This document shows positions 28,901-63,109 of a stretch of 64,000 nucleotides of DNA, one piece after another (position 1 is the first letter of the stretch; every line of letters begins with the position of its first letter). The stretch comes from Macrostomum hystrix (Eukaryota; Animalia; Platyhelminthes). The DNA lies in NCBI GenBank assembly GCA_950097015.1, contig CATNEN010000038.1, forward strand, positions 744,001 through 808,000, in the 5' to 3' direction. The position numbers were made by a program, and so were the translations under genes. The notes beneath the pieces are model-generated. The model did not search any database and was not told where the DNA came from. It saw only the letters and a list, made by a program, of their open reading frames with translations.

Positions 28901-29320
28901 TGGGTCTCCGTTCTCACCGCAGCAGGTCAGAGCAGAGTGACACAAGGCCTGGCTGAGTCTCATTGCCCAACTGTGCAGTCCCAGACTCAATCGGCCACGC
29001 TGAGTAGTGGCACTGAGAGCGATGTCGCGATTTTCTGGCCTGGGATCGATTCCCCACGATTCGAACTGGGAACTCTTCAGGTCTGGAAAAGTATTTAACA
29101 GAAAGCTGTTACAAAGAGGCTTGCAGCAATAGGTCGTATTCAGGCTTCATCAAAAAGTATAAAAGTGTATTTGTGCGTACCTTCTCACCGCCAGGTAGAA
29201 TGAGAACCGGCGCAGCGATGGCATAGCAACAATCTCTAGGACCAAATTTCTGCCGATTTTCTGAAGCGATGAAATCGATTTCACATTTCGAACAGATTTT
29301 AAACCTCCGGTGTGTACCAG
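16444..29320 (-). CDS. ADAM/reprolysin (M12B) metalloprotease-disintegrin gene, copy A (multi-exon)
   Basis: GT-AG exons: 29181-29320, 28918-29082 (CHY...VSLC prodomain), 27385-27566, possibly 26862-26936 (phase unresolved), 26632-26751 (RHRR furin site, LYLIAD), 25428-25499, 19892-20073, 19018-19120, 18324-18709, 17184-17478, 16444-16953. The first exon may be the poly-Leu region near 29820-30000. Confidence 0.88.
17184..17478 (-). CDS. ADAM copy A disintegrin exon
   Basis: CCNATSCQL...CAAGRCC...CRAAKGECDLPEFCNG...CP; cag/gtgagt borders; frame not shown in the ORF track. Confidence 0.9.
18324..18709 (-). CDS. ADAM copy A catalytic exon
   Basis: HELAHNLGVQH (HExxHxxGxxH), Met-turn CMM, then CGNGLLEPGEACDCG. 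Confidence 0.93.
19245..19765. repeat. ~32-bp intronic minisatellite (GAGAGTCTGGTAGACTGGACTCTTTTGGATGA)
   Basis: Directly visible; paralog at 57335-57885. Confidence 0.92.
20210..20429. repeat. 20-bp intronic minisatellite (GACATGGGTATCACCTGTTA), continues at 25004-25415
   Basis: Directly visible on both sides of Gypsy element 2; paralog at 58330-59115. Confidence 0.9.
20430..25003 (-). mobile_element. Complete but decayed Ty3/Gypsy LTR retrotransposon in an ADAM intron
   Basis: LTRs 20430-20606 and 24821-25003 (TG...CA); 5-bp TSD GATAT (20425-20429, 25004-25008); PPT 20607-20619; PBS TGGCATCGCAAGAAC 24805-24819; absent from copy B. Confidence 0.95.
20824..24787 (-). pseudogene. Frameshifted gag-pol of Gypsy element 2
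   Basis: Overlapping ORF pieces: gag, protease LIDSGA, RT FSELDIAKAF with catalytic motif altered to WIHDG, RNase H YASRTL/EKEALAV/SDHKPL, integrase TDNGPPF...NGMTER; at least five frame changes. Confidence 0.9.
25830..26545. repeat. 32-bp intronic minisatellite (CCTGGCCTAATGTCTATTGTACACCCTCATGA), ~22 copies
   Basis: Directly visible; only ~7-8 copies at 59535-59770. Confidence 0.95.
27612..28905. repeat. 14-bp intronic minisatellite (TGTCTGTTCTGGGG / TGTCTGTTCTGGAG)
   Basis: Directly visible; paralog at 60840-61810. Confidence 0.92.
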
Positions 29321-29835
29321 CTGGCACAGCCTTCTGCCGAATGGGGCACCAATCACCGACAGGGCAACCTTCCACTGACCGGGCAACCTTCCACTAACAG
29401 GGCTACCTTCCACTGACCGGGCAACCTTGCACTGAGAGGGCTACCTTTCAATGATGCTCAACCACTCAACTGAACAAAGATTCATATGTAGGCTTCACCT
29501 TCTAGCCTTTTGTTGGTGCAAAATTTCAACGCAATGAGGTTAGTAACAGTACGAGTGATGGCATTTGATGACACAGAACATATGCATCTGTTCCAATTTG
29601 CTCATCGTTAACGATTGTGCACACTCGCTTAAATTTAAATTTCTTAGCTTCCCTAGCTTAACAACTGATATTTAGTAATTGCTCGGCAAGGAAAAAGCTT
29701 GTATTAAAACAGCCTGCCGAGTGCAGCTCACAGCATGTACATTGTGCGAACAAGTGTTCATTGGACAGACTGTGCTGCATGTTCTACTCAGCATCTGATG
29801 AGTCATTTGACAGACCGTGCGTTGGATCAGTAGCC

Positions 29836-29868
<33 letters not shown>

Positions 29869-30538
29869 GCAGCAGTAAGCACACAGAATCCCATCTAGCT
29901 ACTGGGGTTGGCCCGTAAATGTGCCTTAGATGGTTTCCGGGAATTTCAAGCATTTGCACCAAGCCAAACCCCTCCAGCTAACGAACAGATGAAGAAACAG
30001 TCATGTCATTGTTGTAACATTTAGTTAAATCATTTTAGATTTTGCTTACCCGGCTTGGCTGAACTTCCTGACCATCGTTGACCTGAAATGCTCTCACCTT
30101 GGCCAGCAAGGTTAATGGCCTGGTTGAGTCCGCTGAAATTGCAGTTTAGAAAGTTAGAAATTCAGTAGCAATGATTGCTTTTGTAGCTTTCCAGCATGTA
30201 ATTTTGTAAAAAATGCTCGCTAATTACTTTTGAATTGTGTTGTCATTTCAAATAATACATTTAAAACTGAGCACATTCAAAATAGTTATAATGATTGTGA
30301 GCACTGAGTACTTACCAATTGTGCATTTGAAACACAGCAGGGTGATAAATTTAGCAATTAATGTGATACAAAGAAGGCTATGGAATTCACTGGTATGACT
30401 TATTGTCATGTTTACACAAAAAGTTGCAGCGATTCAACCAGTTGAATAGTCAAATAGTCAAATCGGGCACGGAAAGCCGATTTGTGCCCGCTGGGGGGAT
30501 TTCGTCTATGTCTAAAGCTACGGAAATCTGTTCATATT

Positions 30539-31871: not shown

Positions 31872-32601
31872 AGTAGTATGCAAGAGGGGGCTTCTAGGAC
31901 AAAAATAATCGCAGCCTCCATTATCCACAAACCATTACCTTTATTATTCACGAAGAGATCAGGAAAAAAAGGGTCCCCGCCTCTCTCTAAAAAACTCCGT
32001 CTCCATATTCTAAATTCTCTACTTTTAATATTCCACATCAGTTTGTGAGTTGCATATCTAGGACAAAAAATTATCGCAGCCTCCTTAATGCACAAACCAT
32101 TACCTTTCCTGAAGGAAAAAGGTTCCCCGCCAAAAAAAATCTGTCTCTACAGTTTGTGAACTTGGACAAAACAAATTATCGCAGCCACTCCCTAAGAGAT
32201 CATGCACAAAATAGCGAAGCTGCAAAAAGCGTGCCAAGACAATCAAATTAGCACTAAAATCCCATTCCCCAAACTCAAGACCCCAAACCTAGGGTGCTCA
32301 TCCTCCGAAAAAAAAATTATATTCTCATTAAAAATGCTCCCAACCGTCTCTCCAGGATCTTATTACAAAAGTCATGAGCCTAATTACAAGAGTAAATACC
32401 GATGCAAACAAGAATGCAGCGAGTACATGAGAAAATATTGGCCCGGCGTGGATATCAACGTCCCTAATATTAATCAAGCTCTCCAAAGACACTGGTTTCA
32501 TAACACTGGAGTAACCATAAAGGACTATGACAGCTACTATAACTTTGCAGAAATCATTAAGCAGCTTACATTCTCTCAATGATCAACGTCAATACAAACT
32601 C
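31872..32601 (+). repeat. Left TIR (~730 bp)
   Basis: Reverse complement of 46319-47045 with scattered mismatches; internal GGACAAAA-(1-4 nt)-ATCGCAGCC-type subrepeats. Confidence 0.95.
32334..32582 (+). CDS. TIR-encoded 82-aa hypothetical protein (left copy)
   Basis: TTAAAAATG start context like other element genes; open in both TIRs; diverged homolog at 52485-52723. Confidence 0.6.
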   Translation: MLPTVSPGSYYKSHEPNYKSKYRCKQECSEYMRKYWPGVDINVPNINQALQRHWFHNTGVTIKDYDSYYNFAEIIKQLTFSQ

Positions 32602-33363
32602 TTCACCGTTGAAATCAACGCCAACACCATCTTCCGTCTCAAACTGCAGCACAATCTCGTGAATCTCCTTATTACTTAGCACAACTCTTTTCACTGGATT
32701 TGGTTTCTCTACCAGCATCTGTCCTCCAGGAACAGAGTTTGAGATGTTGTACAAAATATTCGTTCGCTTTCCCTTAAATACCCAATCACGACTGAGATTA
32801 CTTCTGATTAGAATATTCAAACCCTTTACAATATCTGCGATATTGGGTGCTAAGAACAGACCGCTTTTATAAACATTCTTCTCGAATCCCAATTCCCTAT
32901 ACCATGTGTCATCTTTAAATTCAACCTCAGCATCTTTGTGAACTTGCATGACCACTCTCATTACAGTGAGATCATAGGATAGTTTGACAGGGAACAGTTT
33001 CTTCTCTGGCTTGCTCTCATTGGGTGTTTCAAAATGGCCTGTTTTAGTAAAAATATTTTCTAGAAAGTAATTGTAGGTATCCACACTTTGCGTGCTCACA
33101 GGGAATACCACAGCTTCTGCTGCTGCACCTCTCCATTTGTAATGAAACTTATTATTTGCTGCTGTCACATTGGGAACGTTTGACCAACCAGTGAAGTCGT
33201 TAAGATATACATGGTAATTAGCACTTGGATCCAGGCGAATCGCCTGCTCTAATTTTTCAACAAATATCCCGTTTGGGTCATTAATTCGCCCAGCTATTGT
33301 AATAGGAATGCTCTCCTTAGAGTGAGAAATAATATTATTTAGTCTTTCAGCAATCGCTTCCAT
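32566..33363 (-). CDS. Minor capsid protein (penton, single jelly-roll)
   Basis: 265 aa next to the major capsid gene; C-terminal NILY...VPGGQMLVEKP...I.EI.L...EDG..VDFNGE..VLTL pattern typical of Polinton pentons. Confidence 0.8.
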   Translation of the reverse strand: MEAIAERLNNIISHSKESIPITIAGRINDPNGIFVEKLEQAIRLDPSANYHVYLNDFTGWSNVPNVTAANNKFHYKWRGAAAEAVVFPVSTQSVDTYNYFLENIFTKTGHFETPNESKPEKKLFPVKLSYDLTVMRVVMQVHKDAEVEFKDDTWYRELGFEKNVYKSGLFLAPNIADIVKGLNILIRSNLSRDWVFKGKRTNILYNISNSVPGGQMLVEKPNPVKRVVLSNKEIHEIVLQFETEDGVGVDFNGEEFVLTLIIERM

Positions 33364-33386
33364 TTTTCAGCCCCGAAAAAAAATAT

Positions 33387-34673
33387 TTAAACTTTACTGG
33401 ATGAATTGTTGATCATGTTAAGCTTCACCTTCCTCTCGAACGCATAGATAATGTACAGGTCAACAGCAGTTGCGGCAGTCCTCTCAATGTTAGTCACGAT
33501 ATTCACAGGGCTGTTATCAGTAGGCATTTGTCTGGCAGACACATCAGCGCCAAACATCGGATAAAGAGTTCCATATTGAAGAGCAGTGATAGCAATTCCA
33601 TTGTTCTCTTTCACAGCCAAGTCGACCAACTCGCTGTAAAATTTGCTAATCTTGTTCTGACTGAAATTTCCATTTTGTGGCAGTGCAGGGTAAAGATTAT
33701 CACTGATTTCATGCTGAATGGACCGCACGTCTCCATGCATGTAGCGTATAATGTTATTTGGGTTTCTCATGTTAATAATAATATACCTTGGATTGCTGCA
33801 TGATCCCTCTTTAATGCAGATGTTTGTTCTGGGTTCGTTTCGCTCATCTCGACACATGTAGGCCGTGTAGGCGACATCAATGTCCTTCTCTATGGCCTTG
33901 AGATAATCTGCTTTTAGTGCGGTCTTTGGCTCAATGACTTCCAAATACAGCTCGATTCCGGTTAGCTTCACTTCCATCCTAGTGTGGTCCGCCCCAGTCC
34001 ACAACACTCTACTGCGATCATCTCTAGTCATCTTAAAGGTGTAGCTGAAGTTACTAGTCAGTCGATTAAATGTATTACAGAATCCACTCATGAATCTCAG
34101 TGGTACGAATACATCAACAGACCGATACAGCGGGTTCTTAGCAGCATCATCAGCACCTTGCAATGCATAGTTGTATCTCTTCTTCCTCTTTTTATAGCCA
34201 CTGTCATTGATATCTCCTTCTTTTTCATCTGCAATGAAACCTGCACCACTCCCCAACTGAATAAAATCTGGATTCTCGATCAAACAATGAGCGTCATAGA
34301 CAATTCCAAAGTTGGCGATTCGCTCCAACTCTGTGCTCCCATTCGATACACTAAACTCCTTGAACATGTACGCCCAAAAGTTACTAATCAGAGCCACATC
34401 TGCATCATGCTTGTCAACGTTAGCATGAGCTGCATCCGCACCTCCCTTTGTCTTGAATTGAAATGTCATATGGAAGCCGCTCTTAAGACTGTGCACACTA
34501 ACCAGAGACGAACATCCATTGTAGGTGAATGTCAGTGTTTGACCAGGACCAAGATTAGTTTCATTCTGATTTTCCTGACTGGGAACTCTTACTTGAGTCG
34601 CTTTGATTGTGCTATCATCACTCAAAATAGGCTTGTTAATTTTGTAGAAAACTGGTGTCAGTAGGTCGTTCAT
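33387..34673 (-). CDS. Major capsid protein (double jelly-roll)
   Basis: 428 aa from AAAAAAAATG (MNDLL...); N-terminal I...DDST...P...NL...TLTF, F....VSNG.E.E and LYP/FGADVS patterns of Polinton MCPs; size and position fit. Confidence 0.82.
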   Translation of the reverse strand: MNDLLTPVFYKINKPILSDDSTIKATQVRVPSQENQNETNLGPGQTLTFTYNGCSSLVSVHSLKSGFHMTFQFKTKGGADAAHANVDKHDADVALISNFWAYMFKEFSVSNGSTELERIANFGIVYDAHCLIENPDFIQLGSGAGFIADEKEGDINDSGYKKRKKRYNYALQGADDAAKNPLYRSVDVFVPLRFMSGFCNTFNRLTSNFSYTFKMTRDDRSRVLWTGADHTRMEVKLTGIELYLEVIEPKTALKADYLKAIEKDIDVAYTAYMCRDERNEPRTNICIKEGSCSNPRYIIINMRNPNNIIRYMHGDVRSIQHEISDNLYPALPQNGNFSQNKISKFYSELVDLAVKENNGIAITALQYGTLYPMFGADVSARQMPTDNSPVNIVTNIERTAATAVDLYIIYAFERKVKLNMINNSSSKV

Positions 34674-34704
34674 TTTTTTTAAACTAAAAAAAATAAAATA
34701 AAAA

Positions 34705-35892
34705 ATGAAGCGAAAAAATGCGCACCAAATATCTGAATTGGAGAAGCTAGCACAAGCAGAAAAGAGAGTTACCGGGCTAATCAATAAGGAGCAACAATCC
34801 TACAATGAGTTTGTCCATGCAGCCACAGAGTTTCATAAACCCGGGTATGGAGAAGCTAAGAAAAATATTGATCAAGTCAAAGAAACTATTGACGACATAC
34901 AGGAAACCCAGGTGCAAAAGGCTTTGGACAAAATTCCAGAAGCACCGCAGATACAACAATCTGCAGAATCGCATCAATCACAATCACTAAAAGTAACGGA
35001 TAACATTTTTGGACCAGTAGAACGTGTAGAACATGATGGGAAATATGTATTTGGAATAAGTATGTGGAGAAAAAACATTTATAATTAACCAGTGGAATAT
35101 TATATCGACATAAATAAGAACCATATTTCTGTTGTCAAAGGCTCAGAAACTAAGAGAATAATTTACACAGAAACCTTACTGAATTTTATGACTAAGAACC
35201 AAGAGAAAATTTCGGACAAGCAGCTAAAGAACTATAGAGATCTAGTACCTTTTGCTCTTGCAAGAGATATAGAAATACTAAAGGTCCCACAAGTTCTGAA
35301 AATAATGCATGACAACGGTGTCATCCTGACTAGATTCAAAAAGTACAAGCATTTTAAACAATGGTTTGGTTTGCCAGATCAAGAAGATGCCACAAAATAT
35401 CTAGAACAGCAACCGCCACAGCAGCAACCGCCACAGCAGCAACCGCCACAGCAGCAACCGCCACAGCAGCAACAAACATTCAAACCCGAAGACATACTCA
35501 GGCAACTGGAAAATGCAGATCCGACTCTAGTAGCTAATTATAAAGAAAATCACTCGGATGCCTGGCAACAACTAGAAAATTTCTCCCCAGATCGAATGAA
35601 TAAAATCAAAGCAAGAGTGTTCACACCACAACAAAGACCAGTAGTGAGTTCACCTTCAGACCAGTCCTCCACCGACCAGTCCTCCACTGACCAATCATTT
35701 CTTGAAAACCCCACTGGAAAAGGAATTTCTGACATCTATAAGCGAGTGGCTGTTCTTCTTGGAGCTGCAAAGACTGGCATGAAAGACGAAAATAGAAAAG
35801 AATTTGTCAACATCCTGGACAAAATGATGGAAAAGAAGTATATCGACAAACGGGCAAGAGAGCTTCTGCTTTCACGTTTTAACAAAAAATAA
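34705..35892 (+). pseudogene. Polinton uncharacterised protein (~395 aa, putative virion core) interrupted by an in-frame TAA at 35086-35088
   Basis: ORFs 34705-35088 and 35092-35892 are in the same frame; C-terminal GKG...RVAVLLGAAKTG...EFVNILDKM motif resembles a recurrent Maverick protein; QQQPP repeats. Confidence 0.65.
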
Positions 35893-35910
35893 TTTCTTCC
35901 CTAATAAAAA

Positions 35911-36303
35911 ATGCCAATTATTTTCGAAAAAGACGTGGACAAATACTATGACAAGGAGGAACTTAATCTAATTAAGCGTGGATCCGGACTTTTCCCGGCA
36001 GGCCACTATCCGAGGAAAGAACGCTCCGGGAATGGTCTTGCTGACATGATTGCACAGGGTGCTCGGGTCTTTAAAGTCATTAGTGAGAACAAAGAAAATA
36101 TTAAGAACGTGGCTGAATCAGTGGGAAGCGTTGTCACTGCGGCTAAAAAGATAAAGGATACTGTAACACAAGATATTCAGCCACCATTGGCACCATTGGC
36201 TCCGCCGGCTCCGCTGGCCCCGAATCCAGACAGTGTGGACCCTGCAATCTACGAGAAGATGAGAGCTAGCATTAAAAAAGGAAGTGGTTTCAAATTCGAC
36301 TAA
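35911..36303 (+). CDS. Small putative core protein with GxG protease-site-like motifs
   Basis: 130 aa; TAAAAAATG start; KRGSGL, RSGNGL, KKGSGF; amphipathic segment and Pro-rich tract. Confidence 0.7.
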   Translation: MPIIFEKDVDKYYDKEELNLIKRGSGLFPAGHYPRKERSGNGLADMIAQGARVFKVISENKENIKNVAESVGSVVTAAKKIKDTVTQDIQPPLAPLAPPAPLAPNPDSVDPAIYEKMRASIKKGSGFKFD

Positions 36304-36344
36304 AGGGTGCTTTTCGAGGGTACAAGACATGTAAGGGTACAAGA

Positions 36345-36430
36345 CTAGTCCCAAATAGACACATCTAAGTCCCAAATAGACACATCTAAGTCCCAAATAG
36401 ACACACCTAAGTCCCAAAAAGACACATCTT
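36345..36430. repeat. 21-bp tandem repeat (AGTCCCAAATAGACACATCTA) x~4
   Basis: Directly visible, intergenic upstream of the ATPase. Confidence 0.85.
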
Positions 36431-36472
36431 ATAAATGATTTACATTTTTTATTTATTTTTCATCATAGAAAA

Positions 36473-37273
36473 ATGGACTTTTCAAACGACTTCAATCCTC
36501 ATTGGACACGTAATCAGATTAAGTTTTCTCATCATGAGTCAATCCCGGGGCACTTCAGATGCATTGTTGTTGGTTCGTCAGGTTCAGGCAAAACATTCAG
36601 AGTCTTTAACATGCTTCTTAGACCTGGCTTTATCGATTATGACACTCTGCACATCTACTCTCCCACCCTGTATCAAGATGAGTATAAAATGTTGATCTCT
36701 GGACTTCAAAACAGACTGCACATAGAACACATTATTCAATGTTTTAATAACCAAAAGAGCCTTCCCAGTAACCCAGAAATTGTAGCTGCCGAATTTGCAA
36801 AGCACCTCAAAGACAATGAAAAATGGCAGAACATTAAAGTGTTCACCTATGGAGATCCGCAGGTTGATCCTAAGACCAAACTTCTACCCCAACCAGATGA
36901 GCTAGAAAAGGGGAGAAAACATTTGATTGTCCTTGATGATTGCATGACAGGCCCACAGAAGCAGATAGAAAACTATTTTACAAGAGGACGGCACAACAAT
37001 TGTAACGTGATTTACATTGCCCAGAACTGGTTCGAGCTCCCGAACAAAACAATTCGTGGGAACTGCAATCTGATCCTCCTGTTTCCAACAATTCCACAGG
37101 ACAGGCTAAAAAGATTTTACAATGAGGTCATTGCGCCTGCCTATTTTGTAAATCCAACAAAAAACTCCAACAGAAAGATTTCACAGGAGGAATTCGTTAA
37201 TCTTTGCTATGAAAAGTGGAATCAACCTTACCAGTTTGTGATGATCAACAAAGAAAAAAGAACTGTAATTTAA
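36473..37273 (+). CDS. A32/FtsK-HerA family DNA packaging ATPase
   Basis: Walker A GSSGSGKT, Walker B LIVLDD, FTRGRHNNCNVIYIAQ motif, IRGN. Confidence 0.95.
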   Translation: MDFSNDFNPHWTRNQIKFSHHESIPGHFRCIVVGSSGSGKTFRVFNMLLRPGFIDYDTLHIYSPTLYQDEYKMLISGLQNRLHIEHIIQCFNNQKSLPSNPEIVAAEFAKHLKDNEKWQNIKVFTYGDPQVDPKTKLLPQPDELEKGRKHLIVLDDCMTGPQKQIENYFTRGRHNNCNVIYIAQNWFELPNKTIRGNCNLILLFPTIPQDRLKRFYNEVIAPAYFVNPTKNSNRKISQEEFVNLCYEKWNQPYQFVMINKEKRTVI

Positions 37274-37298
37274 ATTAATTTAAAATTTCTATTAAAAA

Positions 37299-38027
37299 AT
37301 GTCTATTAATTTTGCAGGTGAATCGTTGGATCGCGGAAGCACACTCACTAGTGCTCAAGTTTCTTACCTTGACAGGCGTTATATAAATGTTGACGAAAAA
37401 ATTCCAGAAATCAAACTCATTAAAGATCGATTGAAAGCCCTAGAGCGGGCAAAACACCAACAACAAATAAACATGGAAGACCTGCGGTTGAGCATAGCAA
37501 AGCGGAAGGAAGAGATTGACATGCTATATATACAGTTTGTTCATGATCGGGATACTCTTGTTGCAGCGATACCCACTCTAAGATCAGACATCGCCACTCT
37601 GAGATCAGACATCGTCACTCTGAGAACTGCCATTAATAATCGAGCAAACTTGGTGGAAGAAAGAGTAACAGAAAATTCAAATAAAGTTCGAAATTTAGAA
37701 GCCTTTATGCTAAGATCAAGCACTGTGCATGATAGATTGAGTTCGCGACTCACAGCAGCAGAGTCAGATATAACAACTCTTCAGAGACTAGAAAATGAAA
37801 CAAAGGAAACACTAAGACCCATGGGGCTAAACGTAACAAGACACACTGAGTATTTGAATCGGATATACAACGACTGGGGGAAAACGAAAAGAAGACTCGG
37901 CCGACTAGAGAGACTGCACAATCTGCCAGACATTGACATTGAAGAAGCAAGAGTATCTGATGGACCATCAGAAGAGGCATCAAGGGAGGCGGCAAGGCGT
38001 GCAACAGATTTGCGAGAAAGGTCATAA
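37299..38027 (+). CDS. Coiled-coil protein (possible fibre/spike)
   Basis: 242 aa; heptads TLRSDIA-TLRSDIV-TLRTAIN and RLTAAESDITTLQ. Confidence 0.7.
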   Translation: MSINFAGESLDRGSTLTSAQVSYLDRRYINVDEKIPEIKLIKDRLKALERAKHQQQINMEDLRLSIAKRKEEIDMLYIQFVHDRDTLVAAIPTLRSDIATLRSDIVTLRTAINNRANLVEERVTENSNKVRNLEAFMLRSSTVHDRLSSRLTAAESDITTLQRLENETKETLRPMGLNVTRHTEYLNRIYNDWGKTKRRLGRLERLHNLPDIDIEEARVSDGPSEEASREAARRATDLRERS

Positions 38028-38057
38028 AAAATTTATATAATTTTTTTCGTTCAATAA

Positions 38058-38696
38058 ATGTCTGAAAAAATAAACTCGCTATATGATCAAGAGCAACCTA
38101 GTGCTCCTTACCAACCTAGTGCTCCTTCAAACTACCAACCTAGTGCTCCCCTTTACCCAACTTTCACTTGCAACTCGCAGCAATTCAGATTGGTGGAGAT
38201 TCAAAAGATGCGAGCTGATATTGAACGGCAAATTGATCATAATACCAAGAAACTGAAGCGCTATAATAGAGAGTGCAAGGTCTTCGATTGCCTTAATATG
38301 TTTCTTGGATCTGTATCTGTTCTATCGGGATCAGCAGCTGCTGTTTCAACACTTCCTGTAATCACTGTACCAATCGCCATTCCATTCGGAGCTGCTGGTG
38401 CCACATGTGGTCTGATTTCAGCAGTTACAGGAGCACTATCACGGAACAGACGACAAAAGCTAAAGCATCTACATGCGAAGCAAACAAATGAGAAATCAGT
38501 ACAAAGCTCTATCATCGGGTACATCTCAAAGGCGATTGAAGACAAGTTCATTTCAGAGGATGAGTTTAAAAACATTCAAGCCCTCTATGAGCAACGAGTT
38601 AGGCTTAATCTAAATACCATTGATGAAATGAGCCAGCTAAGAAATGATCTGGAGAATGTGTTCAAACAGCATGTCGCGAAAAAGAACAAGACCTAA
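38058..38696 (+). CDS. Putative membrane protein with three PSAP motifs (resembles adintovirus GasderminX-type ORFs)
   Basis: 212 aa; QPSAPYQPSAPSNYQPSAPLYP; QFRL..I coiled segment; two hydrophobic Gly/Ala-rich segments; ISEDEF. Confidence 0.75.
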   Translation: MSEKINSLYDQEQPSAPYQPSAPSNYQPSAPLYPTFTCNSQQFRLVEIQKMRADIERQIDHNTKKLKRYNRECKVFDCLNMFLGSVSVLSGSAAAVSTLPVITVPIAIPFGAAGATCGLISAVTGALSRNRRQKLKHLHAKQTNEKSVQSSIIGYISKAIEDKFISEDEFKNIQALYEQRVRLNLNTIDEMSQLRNDLENVFKQHVAKKNKT

Positions 38697-38712
38697 CAGG
38701 ACCTAACGGGAC

Positions 38713-39120
38713 CTAAAAAAATTTTTTTTTCAGCCCTAAAATGATTTCTTTGTAACTCTTTCGGGTGTGGGTCATTGCATACAAAACGGTCATACACAGC
38801 TCGCCACAAACATCACTGTTAAGCCCTTGGAGTATAAAATCTGAGCGGTATATTTTATGTCTCACATGAGTCATATAATTTCTCAGTTGTTCAGGTACAG
38901 CAGTTCCATAGCTATCAAAGTAATAGTACTTGTGTTTACGGTTCGGATCAATTACCCAACAAACCCAATGAGAACCTGGCTTTTCTGCAGGGTCAAAGTT
39001 CATGATTCCACATTCTTTTTCTAGTGGGGTTTCTGGCAGTGTATCCTTCATAAAGACGCCTCGGAAGTTTGGGATTTTTAATTGCTGAGCCAGCTCTTCT
39101 AAATAAATATTGGTTGTCAT
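38713..39120 (-). CDS. Adenain-like cysteine protease
   Basis: GSHWV (His), YFDSYG (Asp), Q...SDVCGELC (Gln/Cys). Confidence 0.93.
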   Translation of the reverse strand: MTTNIYLEELAQQLKIPNFRGVFMKDTLPETPLEKECGIMNFDPAEKPGSHWVCWVIDPNRKHKYYYFDSYGTAVPEQLRNYMTHVRHKIYRSDFILQGLNSDVCGELCMTVLYAMTHTRKSYKEIILGLKKKFF

Positions 39121-39152
39121 TTTTTTTAACAATTTTTTTGTTACAAATTTTG

Positions 39153-42100
39153 TTACAAATTATTTAATCTATAGTGTCCAAATGGTAGGCTGTTAATGTT
39201 GTCAGCAAAGATATATCGTTTGTTATCAGCACCTGAGAGGCCTATCTTCTTCTGTTGAATTGTGTGAATGTTGTGGTTCTTAGACTGCAGTTTCATAAAT
39301 TCATGGGTAGTGTTTTTATTATTGGTCAATGCGTCCTTGTATGAAGCTTCATGGAGATCGTTTTTAACAACATGTTTTGGGATTCCTTTTGATTTTTTAA
39401 TGGTAGACTTACAACTTTTTACAAAATAGGACTTTGCCCTCAAACCGATAAACTCTGTAATGAGGGTGCCAGCCGTTTCATCCTTCATTTTTCCTACAAC
39501 TTTTTGATTTGTTGTATCACGTACTTGATCGCCTTTCAAAGTCTTGAAGGACTCTGGATATTCGGATAGGTCATACAGATGTTTTTGCTTCAACATGTCC
39601 TGATAGACATCCTCAGTCTGTATGTTTAGAATTAGGGAGTCTGTGTCAGTATATAGAAGTTTCAGTTGTTCACCATATTGCCGCTTCATGTCATAGAAGC
39701 ATTTATACATCAGGCGCTTCGATTCGTCAAGTACAGTCACACCTGTGAATATCGGCTTGCATAGGGTAACTTTAGTCTTATAGAACAGTATGGCGCCCAA
39801 GTAATCATTAAAGATATGAAGCTCTTGAAAGTGGGCTTTGATAAACTTGTCTGAATGATACCAGGCTCATAACAGGTAACGAGCTTCAGGTTCGTGCGGT
39901 TGCGTTCGTTTTCTAGGGTCTTGCCATAGACAGAGTTGTTTGCAAGCTTGAACAGGTCCCTGTCAAAGCTGTTTGTTGCTTTAGTTCTAAACTGGGTTTT
40001 TTTTCTATGTATGGCTTCATCCACGCTTCTTCTGTGAATGCGAGAGCCCTGTGAACTTTCGTGACCCTACAGCCTAGGGAGATAAAATACTGCAACAGTT
40101 TGTAGTGGATTTTATAGCGTGTCTTGTTCATGAGATTTTGTGTTAACTTTTTCACATGCTCTTTTTCTTTTTCAGATAGCTGCCAGCTTCCATTGTACTG
40201 GATTATCTTTGGACAGTTAATGTTCTCATGGAAGGGGGCAAAGTCAGAGAAATAGTCGTGAAGTTCCCATGGGATTTCAACATCAACTTCATAGATCGCA
40301 GGTATTGAAAAGTCTGTGTTGTATTCTGTTAGCCACCTAAAATCTCTAACAGGTAAATCTTGGCTCATAGCCCAACCATAGAGGTTGTTGGCATCCAGGT
40401 AAAGGATGTAGTTTGAAGGCTTTTCTTTATCATAGTCTTCTAGATACGGATTGTTTGCCTTTGCATGCCTATGGACACAAATTGAGATGCCACCTCTCTT
40501 AGATGAATCTATAAAGTTGTACATGTCTATGTCTGTAAGCAGCTCGATGTACCAGTTGGGATTTTGATCCCATTTCATTTTAAGCAATGATTCCCAACTG
40601 GTAGCAGGCAAAGACACATAATGAGCGGGGTCAAGACCATAAGCTGAGTACCAGGTCTTTCTAAAGGTTTCAAATACATCAGCTAGAAGAAAGACATCAG
40701 TCCAAAGGTAAAGCATGTGATAATCAAGAAAGTTTCGGCAGTTAAAATGTTTGTAAACAGTCTGAGCATGCTCATAATCTTCATCAGAAATCCCAGAGTT
40801 TGTTAGCTTTGAAAAGAACTTGTCCTTGGGTGGTAATTGTTCGGCAAAGACATGATTACATTCATAAGGGTAGACGCCTTTCTTTCTAAGAAGCTTAAAT
40901 GAATCTGGGGAATCTGCCAGCATCTTGGTATAAGTACGTTGGTCATCGGTGAGATTTTTACTCAAAGCATCGAGACTTGCGGCCAGAAACTGGAATGAAT
41001 CTTTGATCTTAATCTTGCCTGAATCTCGCTTAATATCAATGCACTTAAACTTTTCTTTGTTCTCTGCGATGCAATCTAGTTTAATGCCTGGTATCATACC
41101 CAGCTTCTCAATCAATAAGTGATAATCATATCCCCTTCCGTTATGGAAGAAAATGGTAAGGTCACGGATGTTTTTCTTTAGTTTCAGATTGCAAGTGTTA
41201 TGAGCTGCCCCTCTAAATTTTCCTGTGAAGTGATCGTGGTCTCTGACTGTGTGGTTTTTGGTGTCGCAGGGTGTTAATAGCTTTCGGCAAATGTGACAAT
41301 GAGTTGCAGATCCGAAGTCGATTTCATCTTGATCGGACATAATTATTGGAACAGGCTGAATGGCAGCAACATTTTTCTGTAATTCCATCATCGAGTAAAT
41401 GAATTGTTCAACACACTGGTCACCTAAGAAATAGTTTGAGCAAAAGTTTGAGCAAATAAAAGAGTCTCTTCCAATAAAGAGATACGCAACAGAATTTGGG
41501 ACATGCTTATTGGTTTCAGGGTTTATAGTGCATTCGAAGTCAGCGTATACTATAAACGGGAGCTTCTCCATCTTGTGATAACTCTTAAATCTGAGATGCT
41601 TATCCGTTGGAAGTGTGCAGTTGGTTGGATGATCTTCACAGGTCAGTTCATGCTCTTTAAGTTTTTCATCACGATCGGGTCCACTATAATGCTTCAGACA
41701 AAGACGGCAGATTGCTACCGATTCATGATGATTGTTCATTTGCTTGTGGAGGAGCCTGGAAAGATCTTTAATCCAAACGTAGTGGGCATTTTCTCGCAAA
41801 TCACCTATGATTAGAAGATCGACATCTATGCAACGCCTACCTTCAGGATCTAGCGTGTTTTTACTGGCTCTGACTAATTGTACTTTTTTGCTCTTCTCAT
41901 TCCATTCAAAGACTGTGATTCTGATTTTATTGTTAAAGACTTCCTCTAGCTTTGGGATTTGATCGATTGCCAAGCCGCCTCTATTGAAGGAAATTCCTTT
42001 AGCATGGCATTCTAAAAGTTTTGCGTCAAAATACATTTTATAATGAGAAGTTCTCTCTGGGTGGGCTCGATCTTTCTCATACAATATTGCAGACAAAACG

Positions 42101-42938
42101 GCCCATAGTGCACAGCATTGGTCATAATTTTGCACATTGATGCATGCTTTTTTACTCGCTAGCTTTTTCGGGAGCTCAATATATGATGAAGCTTTGAGAG
42201 GGTCATATTTCATGATCATTACTGTAGCTTTTTGAATGCCATTGACAACCCAACCTGATCCTCTGGAAGTAAAGGCGTCAATCTTTTTACTGATCTCTTG
42301 AAGAAAGGGATCCTGTGTGTCAGTGGGAGTAAAGGGTAGAGCTTTAGTAGTCATGTAGTATTCAAGACGCTCAGTGGGTTTTGCAGGCATGTAAAATTCA
42401 ATCTTGAATGATAACTGAAGCTTGAAGGTCTTACGTGACTTCAGTGTGTGATCAATTACTGATTGAATTCTGTCTTTGAAGTCGTAAATGTCGGATTGGG
42501 AATTTGTGGTGTCTTCCTGGATTGTGTACTCAATATAATACTCTGTGAATTTTCTCTGTGCAAATTTAAGGTCTTCAGTTTGTAGCTCTGCTTCAACCTG
42601 GTGGATTGTACGTTCTAGATCTTCTTGCTCTTGCTTATTCTGTGGGTAGTTCGACACATTTTGACCTGTGAGTGTCTCATACTTATTGACTAAGCTGCGG
42701 CTCTTTTGTTGATGCTCAGTCGCCGGCTTCTTCACTGGTGTGTACTGCTCTGAATGCTGAAGCTGATTAATAATTTCTTGCTGTATTGCATAGCTCCCGA
42801 GGTAGCCTGGATCTTGATTGAATTTCTGCCTGCAAAGCTCTTGCAGGACTTGACTTTTTTGTTGAAACGATTGAGCTTGAGGATAATTATTTTGAAAGAA
42901 AGATTCGACAATTTTTTTTCTGGAATTGCTTTAGGCAT
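39153..42938 (-). CDS. polB: Protein-primed family B DNA polymerase (three single-base frameshifts in this sequence)
   Basis: Exo motifs YADFE, HNGRGYD, Y...DV; Pol motifs YLDANNLYGWAM, KLANNSVYGK, YTDTDS; frames join at ~42915, ~40000 and ~39815. Confidence 0.95.
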
Positions 42939-43032
42939 TTTTAATGAAAATTTTATAAAAAAAAATTTAGGGTGGTCACCCTCAAGTGAAGTGCAAAGTA
43001 TTGCAAACTACTACCAACAGTGCTAAATATAG

Positions 43033-43395
43033 TTATGAGAGCAGATTCTGTTCTGTTTCGTTTTCACAACTACCCCCGATTCTGACTCCTTTTTCTCTAG
43101 CGATTTTCTCCATCTCTTGTTGATGTGCTCTGTCATTGCCAGCCTTCACAGCTGATGCAACTCCGCCGGCTACACCTCCTGCAGCACCAAGAGCACCTGC
43201 GATGATGGGGATAAGAGTTAGCAAAGGAAGAATCCCGCCTGTCTTCTCATCAGTGATATTGTGCGTTTGATTGTTACAATGGATCATATGCTGGATTGGA
43301 TCTACTTTGACTTTGACACCTTTAATTGATACAACTCCTGGCTTCTTAGAGTCGATAATTCTGCTGATTTTATTCACGGTTCTGGTTTCAATCAT
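43033..43395 (-). CDS. Adenovirus protein X (pX)-like core/membrane-active protein
   Basis: KTGG-ILPLLTLIPIIAGALGA closely resembles adenovirus pX MRGG-ILPLLIPLIAAAIGA. Confidence 0.75.
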   Translation of the reverse strand: MIETRTVNKISRIIDSKKPGVVSIKGVKVKVDPIQHMIHCNNQTHNITDEKTGGILPLLTLIPIIAGALGAAGGVAGGVASAVKAGNDRAHQQEMEKIAREKGVRIGGSCENETEQNLLS

Positions 43396-43409
43396 TTTAT
43401 TTAAAAAAA

Positions 43410-44398
43410 TTAATTAATTTCTGTGTCATGTGGAATCACTAGAAGCTCAGCCCTTGTGAATGATCGTGTGGGGGCTTTTGAATTAAAGTCTTGAGATAGA
43501 AAATAGTAATCACCGGATGCTGATGTGAAATGCCTGTTTATCTTATGTACATCAAGACTAAAGTATGGGTCTGTTGCTCTTCTATTTGTGTCCTTCTCTA
43601 GCTCTCCTGGTAAGTAAAGGAAGCGAACGAATTCAGAGTTAGTAAGAATTTCCGGAGAATAAACACCAGGGAGCTTTGGAAATGGGAATTGGGAGATCGG
43701 ATGTTTTGAATTAACTGTGTCTTGTTTGATGGCAGTATTTGGTTTCAGGTTTGTCATTCGAGATACTTCATTGTTCAGTTGACTTATTACTGCGGGGAGT
43801 CTTTCTGTCCACTTGGTATAGTATTGGCCACTTTTTAGTTTCAGCTCTTCAGCTGTCTGCTTTGTGAAAAGTCTCTTTGCTAGAGTTAGATTGAATCTTT
43901 CAACAAAAGCCTGGTCTCTATGGAGCTCAGTTCTTCCGTAGCGCATTTTCGTATTGTTCTTTTCCATAAGGGATTTGACTGCACCCATGAATTCTTTGCC
44001 AGGATCAGTCATAAAGGTTTGGGGGTATGTGAGCGGTGAGTTTTTGTAAATGTCTTGGAGGGCAGCTGCAACTGCTTCTGACTTTTAGTCTTAAGCGGTC
44101 TCGCTTCCTTATATCTGGAGGCAATGTCTATAACTGTGAGCGCATACTTGTAGCCTGAGTCATTGGGGAGAAACAGAAGATCTGCTTGGTGCGCTTCATT
44201 AGGTTTATAGATGTTAAAGTGAGGTCTTGTAAATTTAACAGGTGGGAAATAGACTTGGTAAACTGCTTGCTTAGAGAGCCATCTTTCAACTGTTTGTTTT
44301 GATTCATTGCTTAGTTCTGCGAGTTTAGTGACTGCATTTTTTCCTACAAAGAATCCTTTGTCACTGTAGTAGAGCTTTTGAAGTTTCTGATCTGCCAT
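43410..44398 (-). CDS. int: Retroviral-like DDE integrase (one frameshift at ~44080)
   Basis: HQADL, YKYALTVIDIASRY, TDPGKEF, VERFNLTL; ORFs 44009-44398 and 43410-44012 join with one added base. Confidence 0.93.
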
Positions 44399-44425
44399 TA
44401 TTTTTTATTTAATTTTTTTATAAAA

Positions 44426-44869
44426 ATGATGCAACGCTCTGGTGGTAAACTAGACTCACATGGACTGGTAGAAAAGCTTCCTCATCCAAACAAAGGCTGG
44501 ACAATTCCCGGCTACAAATATTGCGGGCCTTTGAATCCGCTTGAAACACAGCTAGATAAAAACAATAATCCTAATCCTGGGCATGAACCCGTGAACGAGC
44601 TAGACTCTGTCTGCATGTGGCATGATATTAAGTATAGGGATTTTCCAGAGGAGAAGAATCGCTGGGACAAAGAAATGCTCAGAATGCTAGACAATATAGG
44701 GACTTCAAGCGGGTGGAGGGAATCGATCGCTCGGAAGCTAGTTAAAGCTGTTATTTTTGGTAAGGCAAAGTTGGGGTTGGGGATTGGTGGGGTGGGTTTT
44801 GTATTGCACGCGCCAAATAATGAACTAGGAAGACTGCTGAAAGAGCTGGGGGTTGAGAGAGCAGAATGA
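44426..44869 (+). CDS. Parvovirus VP1u-type phospholipase A2 (PLA2X)
   Basis: PGYKYCGP Ca-binding loop, PVNELD..C..HDIKY catalytic motif, downstream D..ML; TAAAAATG start. Confidence 0.9.
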   Translation: MMQRSGGKLDSHGLVEKLPHPNKGWTIPGYKYCGPLNPLETQLDKNNNPNPGHEPVNELDSVCMWHDIKYRDFPEEKNRWDKEMLRMLDNIGTSSGWRESIARKLVKAVIFGKAKLGLGIGGVGFVLHAPNNELGRLLKELGVERAE

Positions 44870-45209
44870 TTCAAGAAAAAAATTCTGCCAAAAAGTCTGC
44901 CAGCCGGCATAAAAAGCGCCACCGAGACTTTTTGGCAGAAAGCGCCGATTGGAGAACTAAAAAATCGATTTGCTGACTGCATGAGCATTCAGCTTTTAAA
45001 TACTGAGAGAAGATAAGGAGCATTTCGCTCGCTTCGCTGTGCTCCTTGTCAGCTTACTATTTTATACCAAACTATCAAGAAGGCAACGTGGACTACGTTT
45101 TCATAGTCAAGAGGTGACTCAAGGTAAGAAACTATTGACCAAATTTCAAATATTGAGTTTCTGCATTAGTAATTCATTTTCAAACTAAGACCCATCTTAA
45201 GTTTTAGAA

Positions 45210-45881
45210 ATGGAGCATGCTTGGATGGTAAATTTGCAAGGAGATCAACAGAAGGCGCAACTTTATAGTCTGCTCAATGTTGCAATCGAAGCAATCGAAA
45301 GTCCTGCGAAGAAAGAGCAGCTAATAAAAGGATTTATAGAATTCTTTAACTTAGATCGGGATTATTTTAAACGCCGAATTCTTCAATTAACCGAGGGTGA
45401 AAATCTGGAATCGGGCGACTACGAAAGGCAACTTCAAGCCTTGCGTCAGATAAAGCGGGAGGAGACTTTCGCCAAGCTGCTAGCCGATTCCCGTTTGAGT
45501 AATAGTAGTGCTCTAATTCAACCACCTGATGAAAGTGACACCTCAATCGTCAAGCACATTAAGTATCACCTCCATCAGATGAAAAAGTCACAACGAAATG
45601 GTCTGCGTGCTGCAATAAGCATAGGAAAGTTTCTTGTGGACTTTAAGGCGCAGGAGACTCGGCGATATTTCAAGATGATAGTAAAGGAGCACTATAACTA
45701 TCTCCTTGAAAAGGTCCAAATAAAGCGGGCAGCCGCCTCGCTTTATGTGACCCTATTCAAACTTTCGATTGTATACCCAGGACTTCAGCAAGTTTCGCTG
45801 CCGATTCGTGAACTTGACGGCAAGCTGAAGCTTCTACAGACAGTTTTAGAGAAAGATTCATCCTGGAAAACTCTTCTTTGA
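45210..45881 (+). CDS. Accessory hypothetical protein (223 aa, helical)
   Basis: Intact ORF inside the element; candidate 5'-UTR intron 45124-45207. Confidence 0.7.
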   Translation: MEHAWMVNLQGDQQKAQLYSLLNVAIEAIESPAKKEQLIKGFIEFFNLDRDYFKRRILQLTEGENLESGDYERQLQALRQIKREETFAKLLADSRLSNSSALIQPPDESDTSIVKHIKYHLHQMKKSQRNGLRAAISIGKFLVDFKAQETRRYFKMIVKEHYNYLLEKVQIKRAAASLYVTLFKLSIVYPGLQQVSLPIRELDGKLKLLQTVLEKDSSWKTLL

Positions 45882-45883
45882 TC

Positions 45884-46228
45884 TTTTGTCTAACGCGTTA
45901 GATTTTTTCTGCATATGTCTTCAATATAGTTACTCGCATGCTAAAGCGTTTATGTATGTCTGTTTTGTCTAACGCGTTAGATTTTTCTGCATATGTCTTC
46001 AATATAGTTACTCGCATGCTAAAGCGTTGTGTATGGCTGTTTTGTCTAACGCGTTAGATTTTTTCTGCATATGTCTTCAATATAGTTACTCGCATGCTAA
46101 AGCGTTGTGTATGGCTGTTTTGTCTAACGCGTTAGATATTTCTGCATATGTCTTCAATATAGTTACTCGCATGCTAAAGCGTTGTGTATGGCTGTTTTGT
46201 CTAACGCGTTAGATTTTTCTGCATATGT
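45884..46228. repeat. ~78-bp tandem array (~4.4 units) with palindrome TCTAACGCGTTAGA
   Basis: Perfect 14-bp palindromes start at 45889, 45968, 46045, 46123 and 46200. Confidence 0.93.
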
Positions 46229-46318
46229 ATGTATAGTCTGAAACGCTCGAAAAAAATTTTATGCAAGCCGTCTGTTCTTAGCACCCAATATCGCAGACAT
46301 TGTAAAGGGTTTGAATAT

Positions 46319-47045
46319 GAGTTTGTATTGACGTTGATCATTGAGAGAATGTAAGCTGCCTAATGATTTCTGCAAAGTTATAGTAGCTGTCATAGTCCTT
46401 TATGGTTACTCCATACTTATGAAACCAGTGTCTTTGGAGAGCTTGATTAATATTAGGGACGTTGATATCCACGCCGGGCCAATATTTTCTCATGTACTCG
46501 CTGCATTCTTGTTTGCATTGGTACTTACTCTTGTAATTAGGCTCATGCCTTTTGTAATAAGATCCTGGAGAGACGATTGGGAGCATTTTTAATAAGAATT
46601 TAATTTTTTTTCGTAGGATGAGCACCCTAGGTTTGGGATCTTGAGTTTTGGGATTGTGATTTTAGTGCTAATTTGATTGTCTTGGCACGCTTTTTGCAGC
46701 TTCGCTATTTTGTGCATGATCTCTTAGGGAGTGGCTGCGATAATTTGTTTTGTCCAAGTTCACAAACTGTAGAGACAGAATTTTTTGGCGGGGAACCTTG
46801 TTCCTTCAGGAAAGGTAATGGTTTGTGCATTAAGGAGGCTGCGATAATTTTTGTCCTAGATATTCAACTCACAAACTGATGTGGAATATTAAAAGTAGAG
46901 AATTTAGAATATGGAGACGGAGTTTTTTAGAGAGAGGCGGGGACCCTTTTTTTCCTGATCTCTTCGGGAATAATAAAAGTAATGGTTTGTGGATAATGGA
47001 GGCTGCGATTATTTTTGTCCTAGAAGCCCCCTCTTGCATACTACT
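46319..47045 (-). repeat. Right TIR (~727 bp)
   Basis: Reverse complement of 31872-32601. Confidence 0.95.
46338..46586 (-). CDS. TIR-encoded 82-aa hypothetical protein (right copy)
   Basis: MLPIVSPGSYYKRHEPNYKSKYQCKQEC...; six residues differ from the left copy. Confidence 0.6.
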   Translation of the reverse strand: MLPIVSPGSYYKRHEPNYKSKYQCKQECSEYMRKYWPGVDINVPNINQALQRHWFHKYGVTIKDYDSYYNFAEIIRQLTFSQ

Positions 47046-49502
47046 CCCAGGCGAGGCAGGAAAGCGATTTTTCAATTTCCTCATAGTCTATGGTGAAAGT
47101 GCAAAAAAATACTTTTTGGTACTGTATTTTTGGGTTACATTTTCCAGCGCAGCTCCCCAAGGGCTGAATCGATCGTCACGCGGGTGGTGTCGTTTTTTCT
47201 ACTCGGTGAGTTCTTTCCAGCGAGGTATGAGTCAACGGACTGCGAGTGTACCGCGCGCCTGATATCTGATGAATTTTACACTTGCGTGCTGCACGATACT
47301 GCAGCTGAATGGCAGGTAGTTGCACTGCGCAAGTGGTGTCAAAAATTCGGCACGGATGCCTGCTACACGACGCTATGCAAGGCGACTCTATGCGATGCAC
47401 GGTTATCAAGCAGTACTTGGAAATGCAGTGCAAAACGTGCATTTTTGCTGTTTTCTCGAAAATGCATGCCGACCTTGGTGGAGTCAAAATTTTTTTTCGA
47501 AGACAAACAGTAGGACAGCTTAGCCGCAAGCAAATGTGCACAAGATTAGGGCACATGACATACTGAGTCGGCGTTGATAAAAGTACATCGCAAGTGTACT
47601 AAAAGTACATAATAGTGCACATGCACTTTAGTGAAAAATTGGTATTTTTCTCCTTTTGACGCGCGCATTTCGCGAAATTCGGCTCCGAATTTGTCGAATG
47701 GTGCGTCAATCTACTGGAAATATTGTTTTGCGTCTAACAAGATATTGCGCGCACCTTTCGGCCCTACCCGGGCTGAGAAAGTCCACCCAGACTGGGGAAA
47801 GGTCGGTTTCGGGACCGGTGCAGACCTTGCTGTGCTCAAACCTACGGCTGGAGGCGAAAAGGGCGCAATACTCCTTGAGCTTGGTATTGAAAGATGCACA
47901 TCCCATGTGGGTATATGGGAAAAATACTACACGTATTACCTGTCAGGATTATTACCTGAAAATGTAATTATGCACAGCGTGTACATTGTGCATTATATCT
48001 GCTAATTGTATCTTTGCTTATTTGATCCTGTACACATTTAATTAGGGTAATGCTCAACTACATTAAACAATTGGTCACTTTTACATTGGCAAAATATGTT
48101 CACTCAGATAAAGGACAAGTGAAAAGTGGAAAAATCCACCCATTCCATTCATTAATTCCACCCATTCCATTCTTATAATGGCAGCCTGCAACACCATGAG
48201 AGATGCATCATGCAAGCCGACTATATCTATAAAGCTATAATATAAATATATAAACATATTCTGATTTCCACATTTTTGTATCATATAAATAAAGTGTTTA
48301 ACTTTTTGCCTCAATGTTTTAAGTCTTCATAGTAATGTATGTTTCCAATTATTATTTTCCGCATCTTAATGTCTGGGAGGGCTCCTCTCTTACTTGTTAA
48401 TATTCTATCACGTGCATGGTCACAGGGCTTTTTAAACTTTAGCAATCTTAATTAGTATAACACTTTATAATATTATATTAGAGTAGTTATTTAACTCTAT
48501 GATAGCATGCAAGTGTCCGAGCGGCAAGACACTACTCTTTACTTATTAATATGAATAACTCGTATGTATATTATTTGCACTGATTATAAATTATTGACAC
48601 ACAGTCTTATTAGGCTCAGTCCCAATAAAGGGCTACCAGTGGATCGGAGGGTGTCCAATCTTACACACAATCACTCTCTTATTCGGAATTACTCCTTATT
48701 TAATCAATTTCACTTTGCAAATCTGCAATATTTGAATCCCTTCTGGGCCTTTGTGTATAATTTCGATCAAAACCTGGATATCTTAGTTCAGTACGAATTC
48801 TCGCTTATGACATACAATTTCCAGCTTGTAGCCTTTAGCTAAATAATGAAATAAGAAAACTTGATTTGCTTAAACAGCTTGTCTTACGAACTTGCGGAAG
48901 AAACGCCAGTTGGGGATCTTTCCGTCTAAAAACCGCTTGTATATATAAAGTTTCTTTCGGAGTGGCGGACATGATTTTTAACAAAAAACGTCAGATAAAC
49001 AGATATTTAATTATACGGTAACGCTACGTTTCTAAGACTTACAAAAATTTAAATGTAAAAATACGACATTAATCGCAGGCAGCTACTACAAATGTATGCT
49101 GATCAATGGCATCCATGTTACTTGTAAGTGTTGCATTTTACTTACTGCTTCTTTGACTGTTTAATGTGTTTGTCTGTGTGTTTTGTATTTTGCTGGAGCA
49201 TTGCATTTATGTTGCAACTTGCCTTTGCAACATCGTTTTTCAAAGGAAAAACGAAATTGAAACCGAAATTTTATTAGTTGAAGCTTGACTTAGAAATAGA
49301 ATACACAGGCTACAGCCCTCCATGCATTTGTCAGTGTTTGTTTGTGGGGACGAGATTTCTGTCTATTTCGGCTTGAATGTACATAAGCTGGGGCCAAGGC
49401 TTTCGCTTTCGCTTGCGGTGATGGAATGGATGGCTGTGCCACCCGATCGATAAAAATCTAGGGGGTTCTCTCAGCCTGAGTGTCTGTGGCTTGAAGGAGG
49501 GC

Positions 49503-63000: not shown

Positions 63001-63069
63001 GTTCGACTGCGTGCAGTTTTAGCAAAAAGAATCGGTTTGTTTTTCCTGTTCATTCCCGCTACAATCAGT

Positions 63070-63109
<40 letters not shown>

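Follow-up and report, generated by a model that had tools for sequence, protein, structure and literature searches.

The open reading frame at positions 38058-38696 (+) of the window, which is the whole 64,000-nucleotide stretch of Macrostomum hystrix DNA analysed here, encodes a predicted two-helix-hairpin membrane protein of 212 aa with late-domain motifs and lies within a Polinton/adintovirus element. Judging from sequence comparison, the pair of late-domain motifs on this putative Polinton membrane protein is real and family-wide. P(T/S)AP binds TSG101 and YPXnL binds ALIX, and both motifs of the family very probably bind these ESCRT adaptors. The best explanation, held with moderate confidence and drawn by analogy, is that the hairpin protein would be an ESCRT-recruiting exit protein of the Polinton, working like NS3 of bluetongue virus.

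The element spans 31872-47045 (15,174 bp), has AGTAGT ends and is flanked on both sides by a CCCAGG target-site duplication (6 bp). The left terminal inverted repeat (31872-32601, +) is about 730 bp long and 96.5% identical to the right one (46319-47045, -). A likely minor capsid protein (penton) is encoded at 32566-33363 (-), assigned on position and size only and with no Pfam match, and a likely major capsid protein of the double jelly roll type at 33387-34673 (-; PF21738, E 1.7e-4, below the curated cut-off). An A32/FtsK-type packaging ATPase (36473-37273, +; PF04665, E 4.5e-6, above cut-off) is followed by the upstream neighbour of the late-domain gene, a 242-aa coiled-coil-like protein with a 21-nt tandem repeat of its own (37299-38027, +). 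Downstream of the late-domain gene and convergent with it lies an adenain-type maturation protease (38713-39120, -; PF00770, E 5.5e-5, above cut-off), so that the gene sits between the ATPase-side genes and the protease. The remaining genes are a protein-primed PolB (39153-42930, -; PF03175, E 4.4e-11) and an rve integrase (43410-44398, -; PF00665, E 4e-4 on the first piece), each split into two reading frames, a protein with an adenovirus pX-like segment (43033-43395, -; PF05829, E 4.4e-6) and a parvovirus-type PLA2 (44426-44869, +; PF08398, E 5.7e-15). The pPolB and rve integrase, the morphogenesis module, and the long terminal inverted repeats, AG-start ends and 6-bp target-site duplication identify the element as a Polinton/Maverick (adintovirus); the initial annotation's placing of the protein in a capsid-type Polinton is confirmed by these repeats and by the ATPase, protease, pPolB and integrase. 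The splitting of PolB and of the integrase marks this copy as a provirus in slight decay, and selection on it may have ended now that both genes are broken.

Several further features of the element were recorded. The pX-like segment and the PLA2 come from two open reading frames here, placed divergently; fusion of pX and PLA2 as PLA2X, and PLA2 as a candidate entry factor, are described in PMC8502044. The capsid reading frame at 33387-34673 (-) contains LYPAL and LYPMF, at residues 327 and 370, which may have a structural role. In a 130-aa open reading frame at 35911-36303 (+), the middle segment looks amphipathic and [KR]-x-G-[SN]-G-[LF] sites occur three times; the product may be a protease-matured, membrane-lytic virion protein comparable to adenovirus VI or the 'Cupiennin' class. 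Just inside the right terminal inverted repeat, at 45884-46318, there are a 78-bp unit repeated 4.4 times and a short duplicate of the penton-like gene.

Outside the element, the window contains fragments of related Polintons at 15812-15963 and 52026-52716 (an integrase piece at 94% and a stretch resembling the terminal inverted repeat at about 70% identity). A perfect inverted repeat of 738 bp with a 120-bp spacer at 49502-51097 is either a foldback element of recent origin or an artefact of assembly. A segmental duplication of about 88-97% identity pairs 16226-20284 with 54332-58403 and 25010-30463 with 58747-63733, and within it lies a fragment of a reprolysin-like metalloprotease (18323-18862, E 1.7e-11). 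A LINE and a fragmented LTR retrotransposon pol occupy 10718-14713 (-) and 20827-24230 (-); the LINE endonuclease-RT frame is open over 1,332 codons. The retroelements and the reprolysin-like fragment in the flanks of the Polinton fit the genome of an animal.

The N-terminal region of the 212-aa protein carries three PSAP motifs of the TSG101-UEV type (38097-38150, +; residues 14-17, 20-23 and 28-31). They are followed at residues 32-36 by LYPTF (38151-38165, +), a variant of the [LIVM]YPx[LIV] ALIX-type motif of the family. The initial annotation had described a triple PSAP created by a short internal repeat and followed by a hydrophobic hairpin, and this description holds. A 17-nt direct repeat is present three times (38091-38107, 38109-38125 and 38133-38149; span 38091-38149, +), with copies of 88, 100 and 100% identity and spacings of 18 and 24. 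Since the three repeat copies encode the three PSAPs, these represent one motif duplicated twice and not three independent ones. When the N-terminus of the 212-aa protein was shuffled 20,000 times, at least one P[TS]AP arose in 1.4% of the shuffles and three arose in none. The terminal F of LYPTF leaves no strict match to YPxL or LYPx(n)L and is found at this position in 2 of 153 family members, which makes LYPTF a rare, non-canonical form of the putative ALIX-type motif. Of the LYPx(n)L motif named in the initial annotation, the family widely has a YPxL-type form (127/153), and this copy has the variant with terminal F. A further N-terminal motif, NSLY (38058-38085), is common to the closest subfamily (P0001-P0013) and was not seen family-wide.

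The triplication itself is an incidental, local oddity of this copy. Three PSAP copies occur in this protein alone (1/153), two copies in one other member (1/153), and more than one copy in none of the 117 proteins of a second homologue set. A near-identical element (~97% identity; contigs in runs X5/X8 of one study) is without 24 nt inside the repeat; this shortfall equals one repeat spacing and is consistent with one unit fewer. At least four other open reading frames of the same element have short in-frame tandem repeats. On the grounds of its rarity, the shorter close element and the repeats across the element, the triplication was rejected as a selected multivalent signal, and the emphasis that had been placed on the triple copy is not upheld. 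With its F-ending ALIX-type motif, the triple-PSAP copy may lean on TSG101; the triplication can equally be neutral slippage.

Homologues were collected by a family profile search, which returned 2,319 clusters (50% identity) at E<=1e-3. The best 150 of these clusters, together with earlier matches, gave 164 proteins for examination, of which 11 were dropped for a short or truncated N-terminus, leaving 153 divergent relatives. Named members come from two corals, with multiple copies in each genome; the labels of Atlas neighbours, based on few records, are Mollusca, Nucleocytoviricota and Preplasmiviricota. Ahead of the conserved core lies a short region, 31 residues long on average, that is unalignable. 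Within this region, [LIVM]YPx[LIV] was found in 127 proteins, P[TS]AP in 74 and either motif in 139, against maxima of 4, 4 and 6, respectively, in composition-matched shuffles. The YPxL type (83%) is the main motif of the family, above PSAP (48%); P[TS]AP is missing from 79 members, and 9 have neither PSAP nor YP. Over the remaining ~180 residues of the sequence, either motif was present in 1 of the 153 proteins.

The first family profile itself included the motifs, and two checks were made with the core only. Among non-seed proteins with high core-only scores, [LIVM]YPx[LIV] was present in 56 of 72 and P[TS]AP in 32 of 72. A second search, its profile (A5) built without the N-terminus, gave 105/117 and 94/117 after 3 of 120 proteins had been dropped, and 18/20 and 16/20 after thinning at 70% identity; a clade bias remains in this second set, which was seeded from loci found via the motif pattern. 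The initial annotation had named lack of conservation in homologues as a ground for abandoning its reading; with three copies here and P[TS]AP in 74/153 and 94/117 relatives, the putative P(T/S)AP late-domain motif is instead conserved. In the two sets, the motifs exceed composition-matched shuffles by a factor of roughly 80 or more. Near-miss motifs do not rise above the range of the shuffles: P[^ST]AP was counted 6 times against a mean of 4.7, P[ST][^A]P 17 times (mean 9.6, maximum 19), and the YP motif without the hydrophobic residue at -1 7 times (mean 5.2), all with n=153. PPYP of the ALG-2 type and dileucine signals were each found in 0/153, and PPxY in 15/153.

The order of the two motifs varies, PSAP coming first in 43 proteins and YP in 28. 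On a quick tree made from the core only (150 rows, with many weak branches), the order arrangements are scattered, with 23 and 21 changes, of which 11 and 6 are forced by starred branches. Scattered order and exact residue preference are, at the level of sequence, the pattern of selected short linear motifs. The residue preferences of these putative motifs match those of the TSG101 and ALIX ligands given in PMC8402826 and PMC4880917.

Beyond the disordered tail, the protein is predicted to be helical and membrane-associated. The N-terminal part of helix 1 (38172-38288, +; residues 39-77) has a conserved FRLxxI start, a coiled-coil face and a basic patch ahead of the membrane segment. It leads into a Gly/Ala/Ser/Val-rich hairpin with a tight Pro turn (38289-38441, +; residues 78-128), predicted to be a two-pass or deep membrane hairpin, in which no D, E, K, R or H occurs and the maximum 19-residue hydropathy is 1.72. 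The predicted cytosolic C-terminal part (38442-38693, +) consists of a basic post-hairpin helix, an S-K-A-x-x-D-x-x-I-S-x-x-E-F turn and a C-terminal helix. The turn (38526-38567, residues 157-170) is the most conserved segment of the family; it recalls the latter half of an EF-hand or TerB-type turn, DUF533 being matched in 12 of 148 members, and is a candidate partner-binding or oligomer site. An AlphaFold2 model based on the 148-sequence alignment has helices at 39-97, 104-162 and 167-211 (mean pLDDT 86, pTM 0.67), the first two forming a long helical hairpin with the hydrophobic segment at its tip. Residues 1-38 are predicted to be disordered, with no secondary structure and a pLDDT of 57-66. 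A structure model built on just 11 sequences reached a pLDDT of only 59 and was not used for the fold searches.

The 20 residues on each side of the hairpin have net charges of +3 and +6. Across the family, the median uncharged stretch is 44.5 aa. Of 148 members, 133 carry a net positive charge on both flanks, and none shows a signal-like stretch at the N-terminus. Because the flanks are positive and the N-terminus is not signal-like, both ends of the protein, and hence both motifs, are predicted to lie on the cytosolic side. It is in the cytosol that ESCRT adaptors act; a lumenal position, which the initial annotation had listed as a refutation, is not what the predicted topology gives.

The genes of relatives were also located where possible. 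Related loci were found neither in viral_contigs nor, with the close alignment as query, in metagenome_contigs, and a phage search gave no match; sequencing runs guessed to be RNA yielded partial, divergent contigs only. A distant-subfamily query returned five loci; L005 among them lies in bacterial DNA and is spurious. In L001 the gene adjoins pPolB and also penton- or fibre-like genes, in L003 it adjoins PLA2, and the contigs of L002 and L004 are too short to show neighbours. The family is, at least partly, Polinton-borne, and the position of the gene is not fixed between this element and the fetched loci.

The exit reading draws on the likeness to NS3/NS3A of the orbiviruses (PF01616), which are also non-enveloped and whose protein has a similar layout of late domains, coiled coil, basic patches and two hydrophobic segments. 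In bluetongue NS3, the late domains, PSAP among them, lie at the N-terminus, and the protein further has a coiled coil, polybasic motifs, two transmembrane segments and a cytosolic C-terminus (PMC6949946); it is non-structural, carries a C-terminal VP2-binding motif and is required for non-lytic budding (PMC6949946, PMC7409164). By analogy, the cytosolic tail of the Polinton protein would recruit ALIX via the YPxL-type motif and TSG101 via P[TS]AP, and non-enveloped capsids would bud into a membrane and leave the cell without lysis. The protein would be non-structural, its C-terminal helices may engage the capsid, and the membrane used may be the plasma membrane, the endosome or the inner nuclear membrane. 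Polintons probably assemble in the nucleus, so that a plasma-membrane route would need a further step. Herpesviruses use ALIX and ESCRT-III at the nuclear envelope, and, speculatively, budding at that site would fit with the ALIX-type motif being the predominant one.

The likeness has limits. In NS3 the partner of PSAP is PPxY (NEDD4), and a glycosylated loop separates the transmembrane segments, whereas in the Polinton family P[TS]AP goes together with an ALIX-type YPxL, and the protein, with a tight hairpin and no real outer loop, belongs to a dsDNA integrating element. The NS3 hallmarks of a PPxY and PSAP pair and a glycosylated loop were not found in the family, in which PPxY is infrequent and the hairpin is tight and uncharged. 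No match to PF01616 was obtained at the Pfam cut-off; the best E was 0.043, in 3 of 20 members, with none for the 212-aa protein. Two orbivirus NS3 models were among the best 50 matches in the viral structure library BFVD, at E 0.061 (TMq 0.45) and 0.11. These values fall short of showing homology to NS3.

The top BFVD matches are the invertebrate iridovirus proteins S6DF61, A0A068QKD3 and A0A5B8RH66 (E 7.6e-7 to 6.1e-5), below which come giant-virus proteins, SLATT-labelled proteins and the NS3 models. The three proteins have 214-276 aa, 16-25% identity and TMq 0.53-0.60; the rmsd is large (10-30 A), and the comparison is by predicted fold and not by motifs. Given the modelled folds, they are probably homologues. 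Tiger frog virus, a related iridovirus, buds via ALIX, TSG101 and NEDD4 using other late-domain proteins (PMC4880917). In the PDB, Foldseek found nothing at E<=0.001, and VIA-align gave generic helical hairpins only, with Z of 12.7 or less.

Motif pairs of this kind are described for HIV-1 p6 (PTAP and YPXnL) and MLV (PSAP and LYPAL), and single late domains for EIAV p9 (YPXL) and hepatitis A virus VP2 (YPX3L) (PMC8402826). Retroviruses and hepatitis A virus have the same two motif classes, but place them in capsid or Gag, whereas those of the Polinton are on a separate predicted membrane protein. The view of the initial annotation that ESCRT use is not an expected function for a non-enveloped virion was overstated in the light of the bluetongue NS3 and hepatitis A virus VP2 precedents (PMC6949946, PMC7409164, PMC8402826); late domains in a non-enveloped virus are an already known type of mechanism.

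The adintovirus proteins GasderminX and PLA2X are membrane-active accessory gene products of the same virus group and typically have a C-terminal pX-like domain (PMC8502044). The 212-aa protein has no Pfam match to pX or gasdermin, nor do these appear among the 25 commonest families of the 148 members, and hhalign to the pX reading frame of the element gave a probability of 3%; identity with GasderminX is not supported.

The strongest rival to the exit reading, possible though well behind it in probability, is a SLATT-like pore former acting as a viroporin or lysis factor, whose late motifs would send the protein into multivesicular bodies or tie up ESCRT membrane repair and so lead to lysis. 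The hairpin is moderately hydrophobic and Gly/Ala/Ser-rich, similar to pore-forming hairpins, and there are weak profile matches to AopB (E 0.004), to the RTX N-terminus (33 of 148 members) and to SLATT_1 (5 of 148, best E 0.0021), all below the curated cut-offs. Nine of the best 50 BFVD matches bear a SLATT label (E 0.012-0.14, TMq 0.36-0.58). Viral SLATT proteins (SMODS/SLOG-associating 2TM), which occur in NCLDVs, PLVs and adintoviruses, have a plan of a helix, a two-TM hairpin and a conserved helix that the predicted architecture here fits; they have been described as putative pore formers, with no late domains assigned and with entry pores rather than exit proposed, in the text of PMC12220804 that was available. 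SLATT labels also stand on adintovirus maps (PMC8502044, supplement Fig. S2), and the family may be among those labelled 'SLATT', 'ColicinX' or 'Adintoc' there. The 212-aa protein itself has no SLATT match in Pfam, the best E of the family being that for SLATT_1, and an Atlas score of 0.75 for SLATT_4 is a lead only; a SLATT origin of the family is plausible. A pore is less readily reconciled with the matches lying below the curated cut-offs, which a generic coiled coil and hydrophobic hairpin may explain, with the PDB matches being generic hairpins, and with the presence of two different late motifs together, which is typical of budding proteins (PMC8402826). The two roles overlap, in that NS3 also shows viroporin-like activity (PMC7409164).

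It is unlikely that the YP motif acts instead as a YxxPhi clathrin-adaptor sorting signal, or as another kind of proline-motif anchor, by which the protein would be routed to endosomes or exosomes and change host signalling. YPxL and the YPTF of this copy do both fit the YxxPhi consensus, and host exosome cargoes use such motifs. The residues around the tyrosine nevertheless follow an ALIX-type pattern: Pro stands at +1 for 150 of 224 N-terminal Tyr, the residue at -1 is hydrophobic in 129 cases against 7 without, and Y[^P]x-hydrophobic is under-represented (19 against a shuffle mean of 35.8, n=153). The YP motif moreover co-occurs with P[TS]AP.

Less probable still is a virion component that would form a pore for endosomal escape at entry, its motifs steering the incoming particle. 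Such a role has been proposed in print for the SLATTs of PLVs (PMC12220804), and the gene has structural genes around it in this element and penton- or fibre-like ones beside it in L001. A two-pass membrane protein would, however, be hard to package in a naked capsid, and late motifs do their work in the producer cell, from its cytosolic side. The element already has a PLA2, whereas the argument in PMC12220804, as far as its available text goes, depended on the absence of lipases. A G-x-G maturation-site pattern outside the hairpin, an ad hoc pattern and a weak test, was present in only 1 of 153 proteins.

That the motifs have no function and simply result from a proline-rich, disordered tail together with DNA slippage is highly improbable: the recent repeat, the tandem repeats in other reading frames and the length difference in the close relative account for the three copies and not for the motif, with its strong enrichment and its near-misses at chance, so that this reading stands for the triplication and is largely refuted for the motifs.

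In the literature covered, outside which most subscription journals lie, no paper was found on this late-domain Polinton protein. Matches for polinton with ESCRT were unrelated by title, and the combinations of Polintons with transmembrane and egress, and of SLATT with virus and ESCRT, gave none. The main text of PMC8502044 contains no PSAP, late domain or envelope term; 'egress' is absent from the texts of PMC8097293, PMC11131425, PMC12220804 and 10.64898/2026.06.19.733378 as available, and 'ESCRT' and 'budding' from the last two. Maverick particles have not been observed so far, according to the available text of PMC8097293.

Read as an exit protein, the family would give Polintons a concrete and testable way out of the cell, encoded by an accessory gene that is widespread and keeps its ESCRT-type motifs; particles would then be predicted in vesicle fractions and not at the density of naked capsids. 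For viral SLATT-like proteins, this is a different proposal from the entry pore already in print. More tentatively, many animal Polintons may be quasi-enveloped, a SLATT-derived protein shared with invertebrate iridoviruses serving as a budding adaptor that relies first on ALIX and encloses naked capsids in host membrane, possibly as early as at the inner nuclear membrane. If this is true, the protein would be a DNA-virus counterpart of orbivirus NS3 and would give a reason why free Polinton virions are so hard to see.
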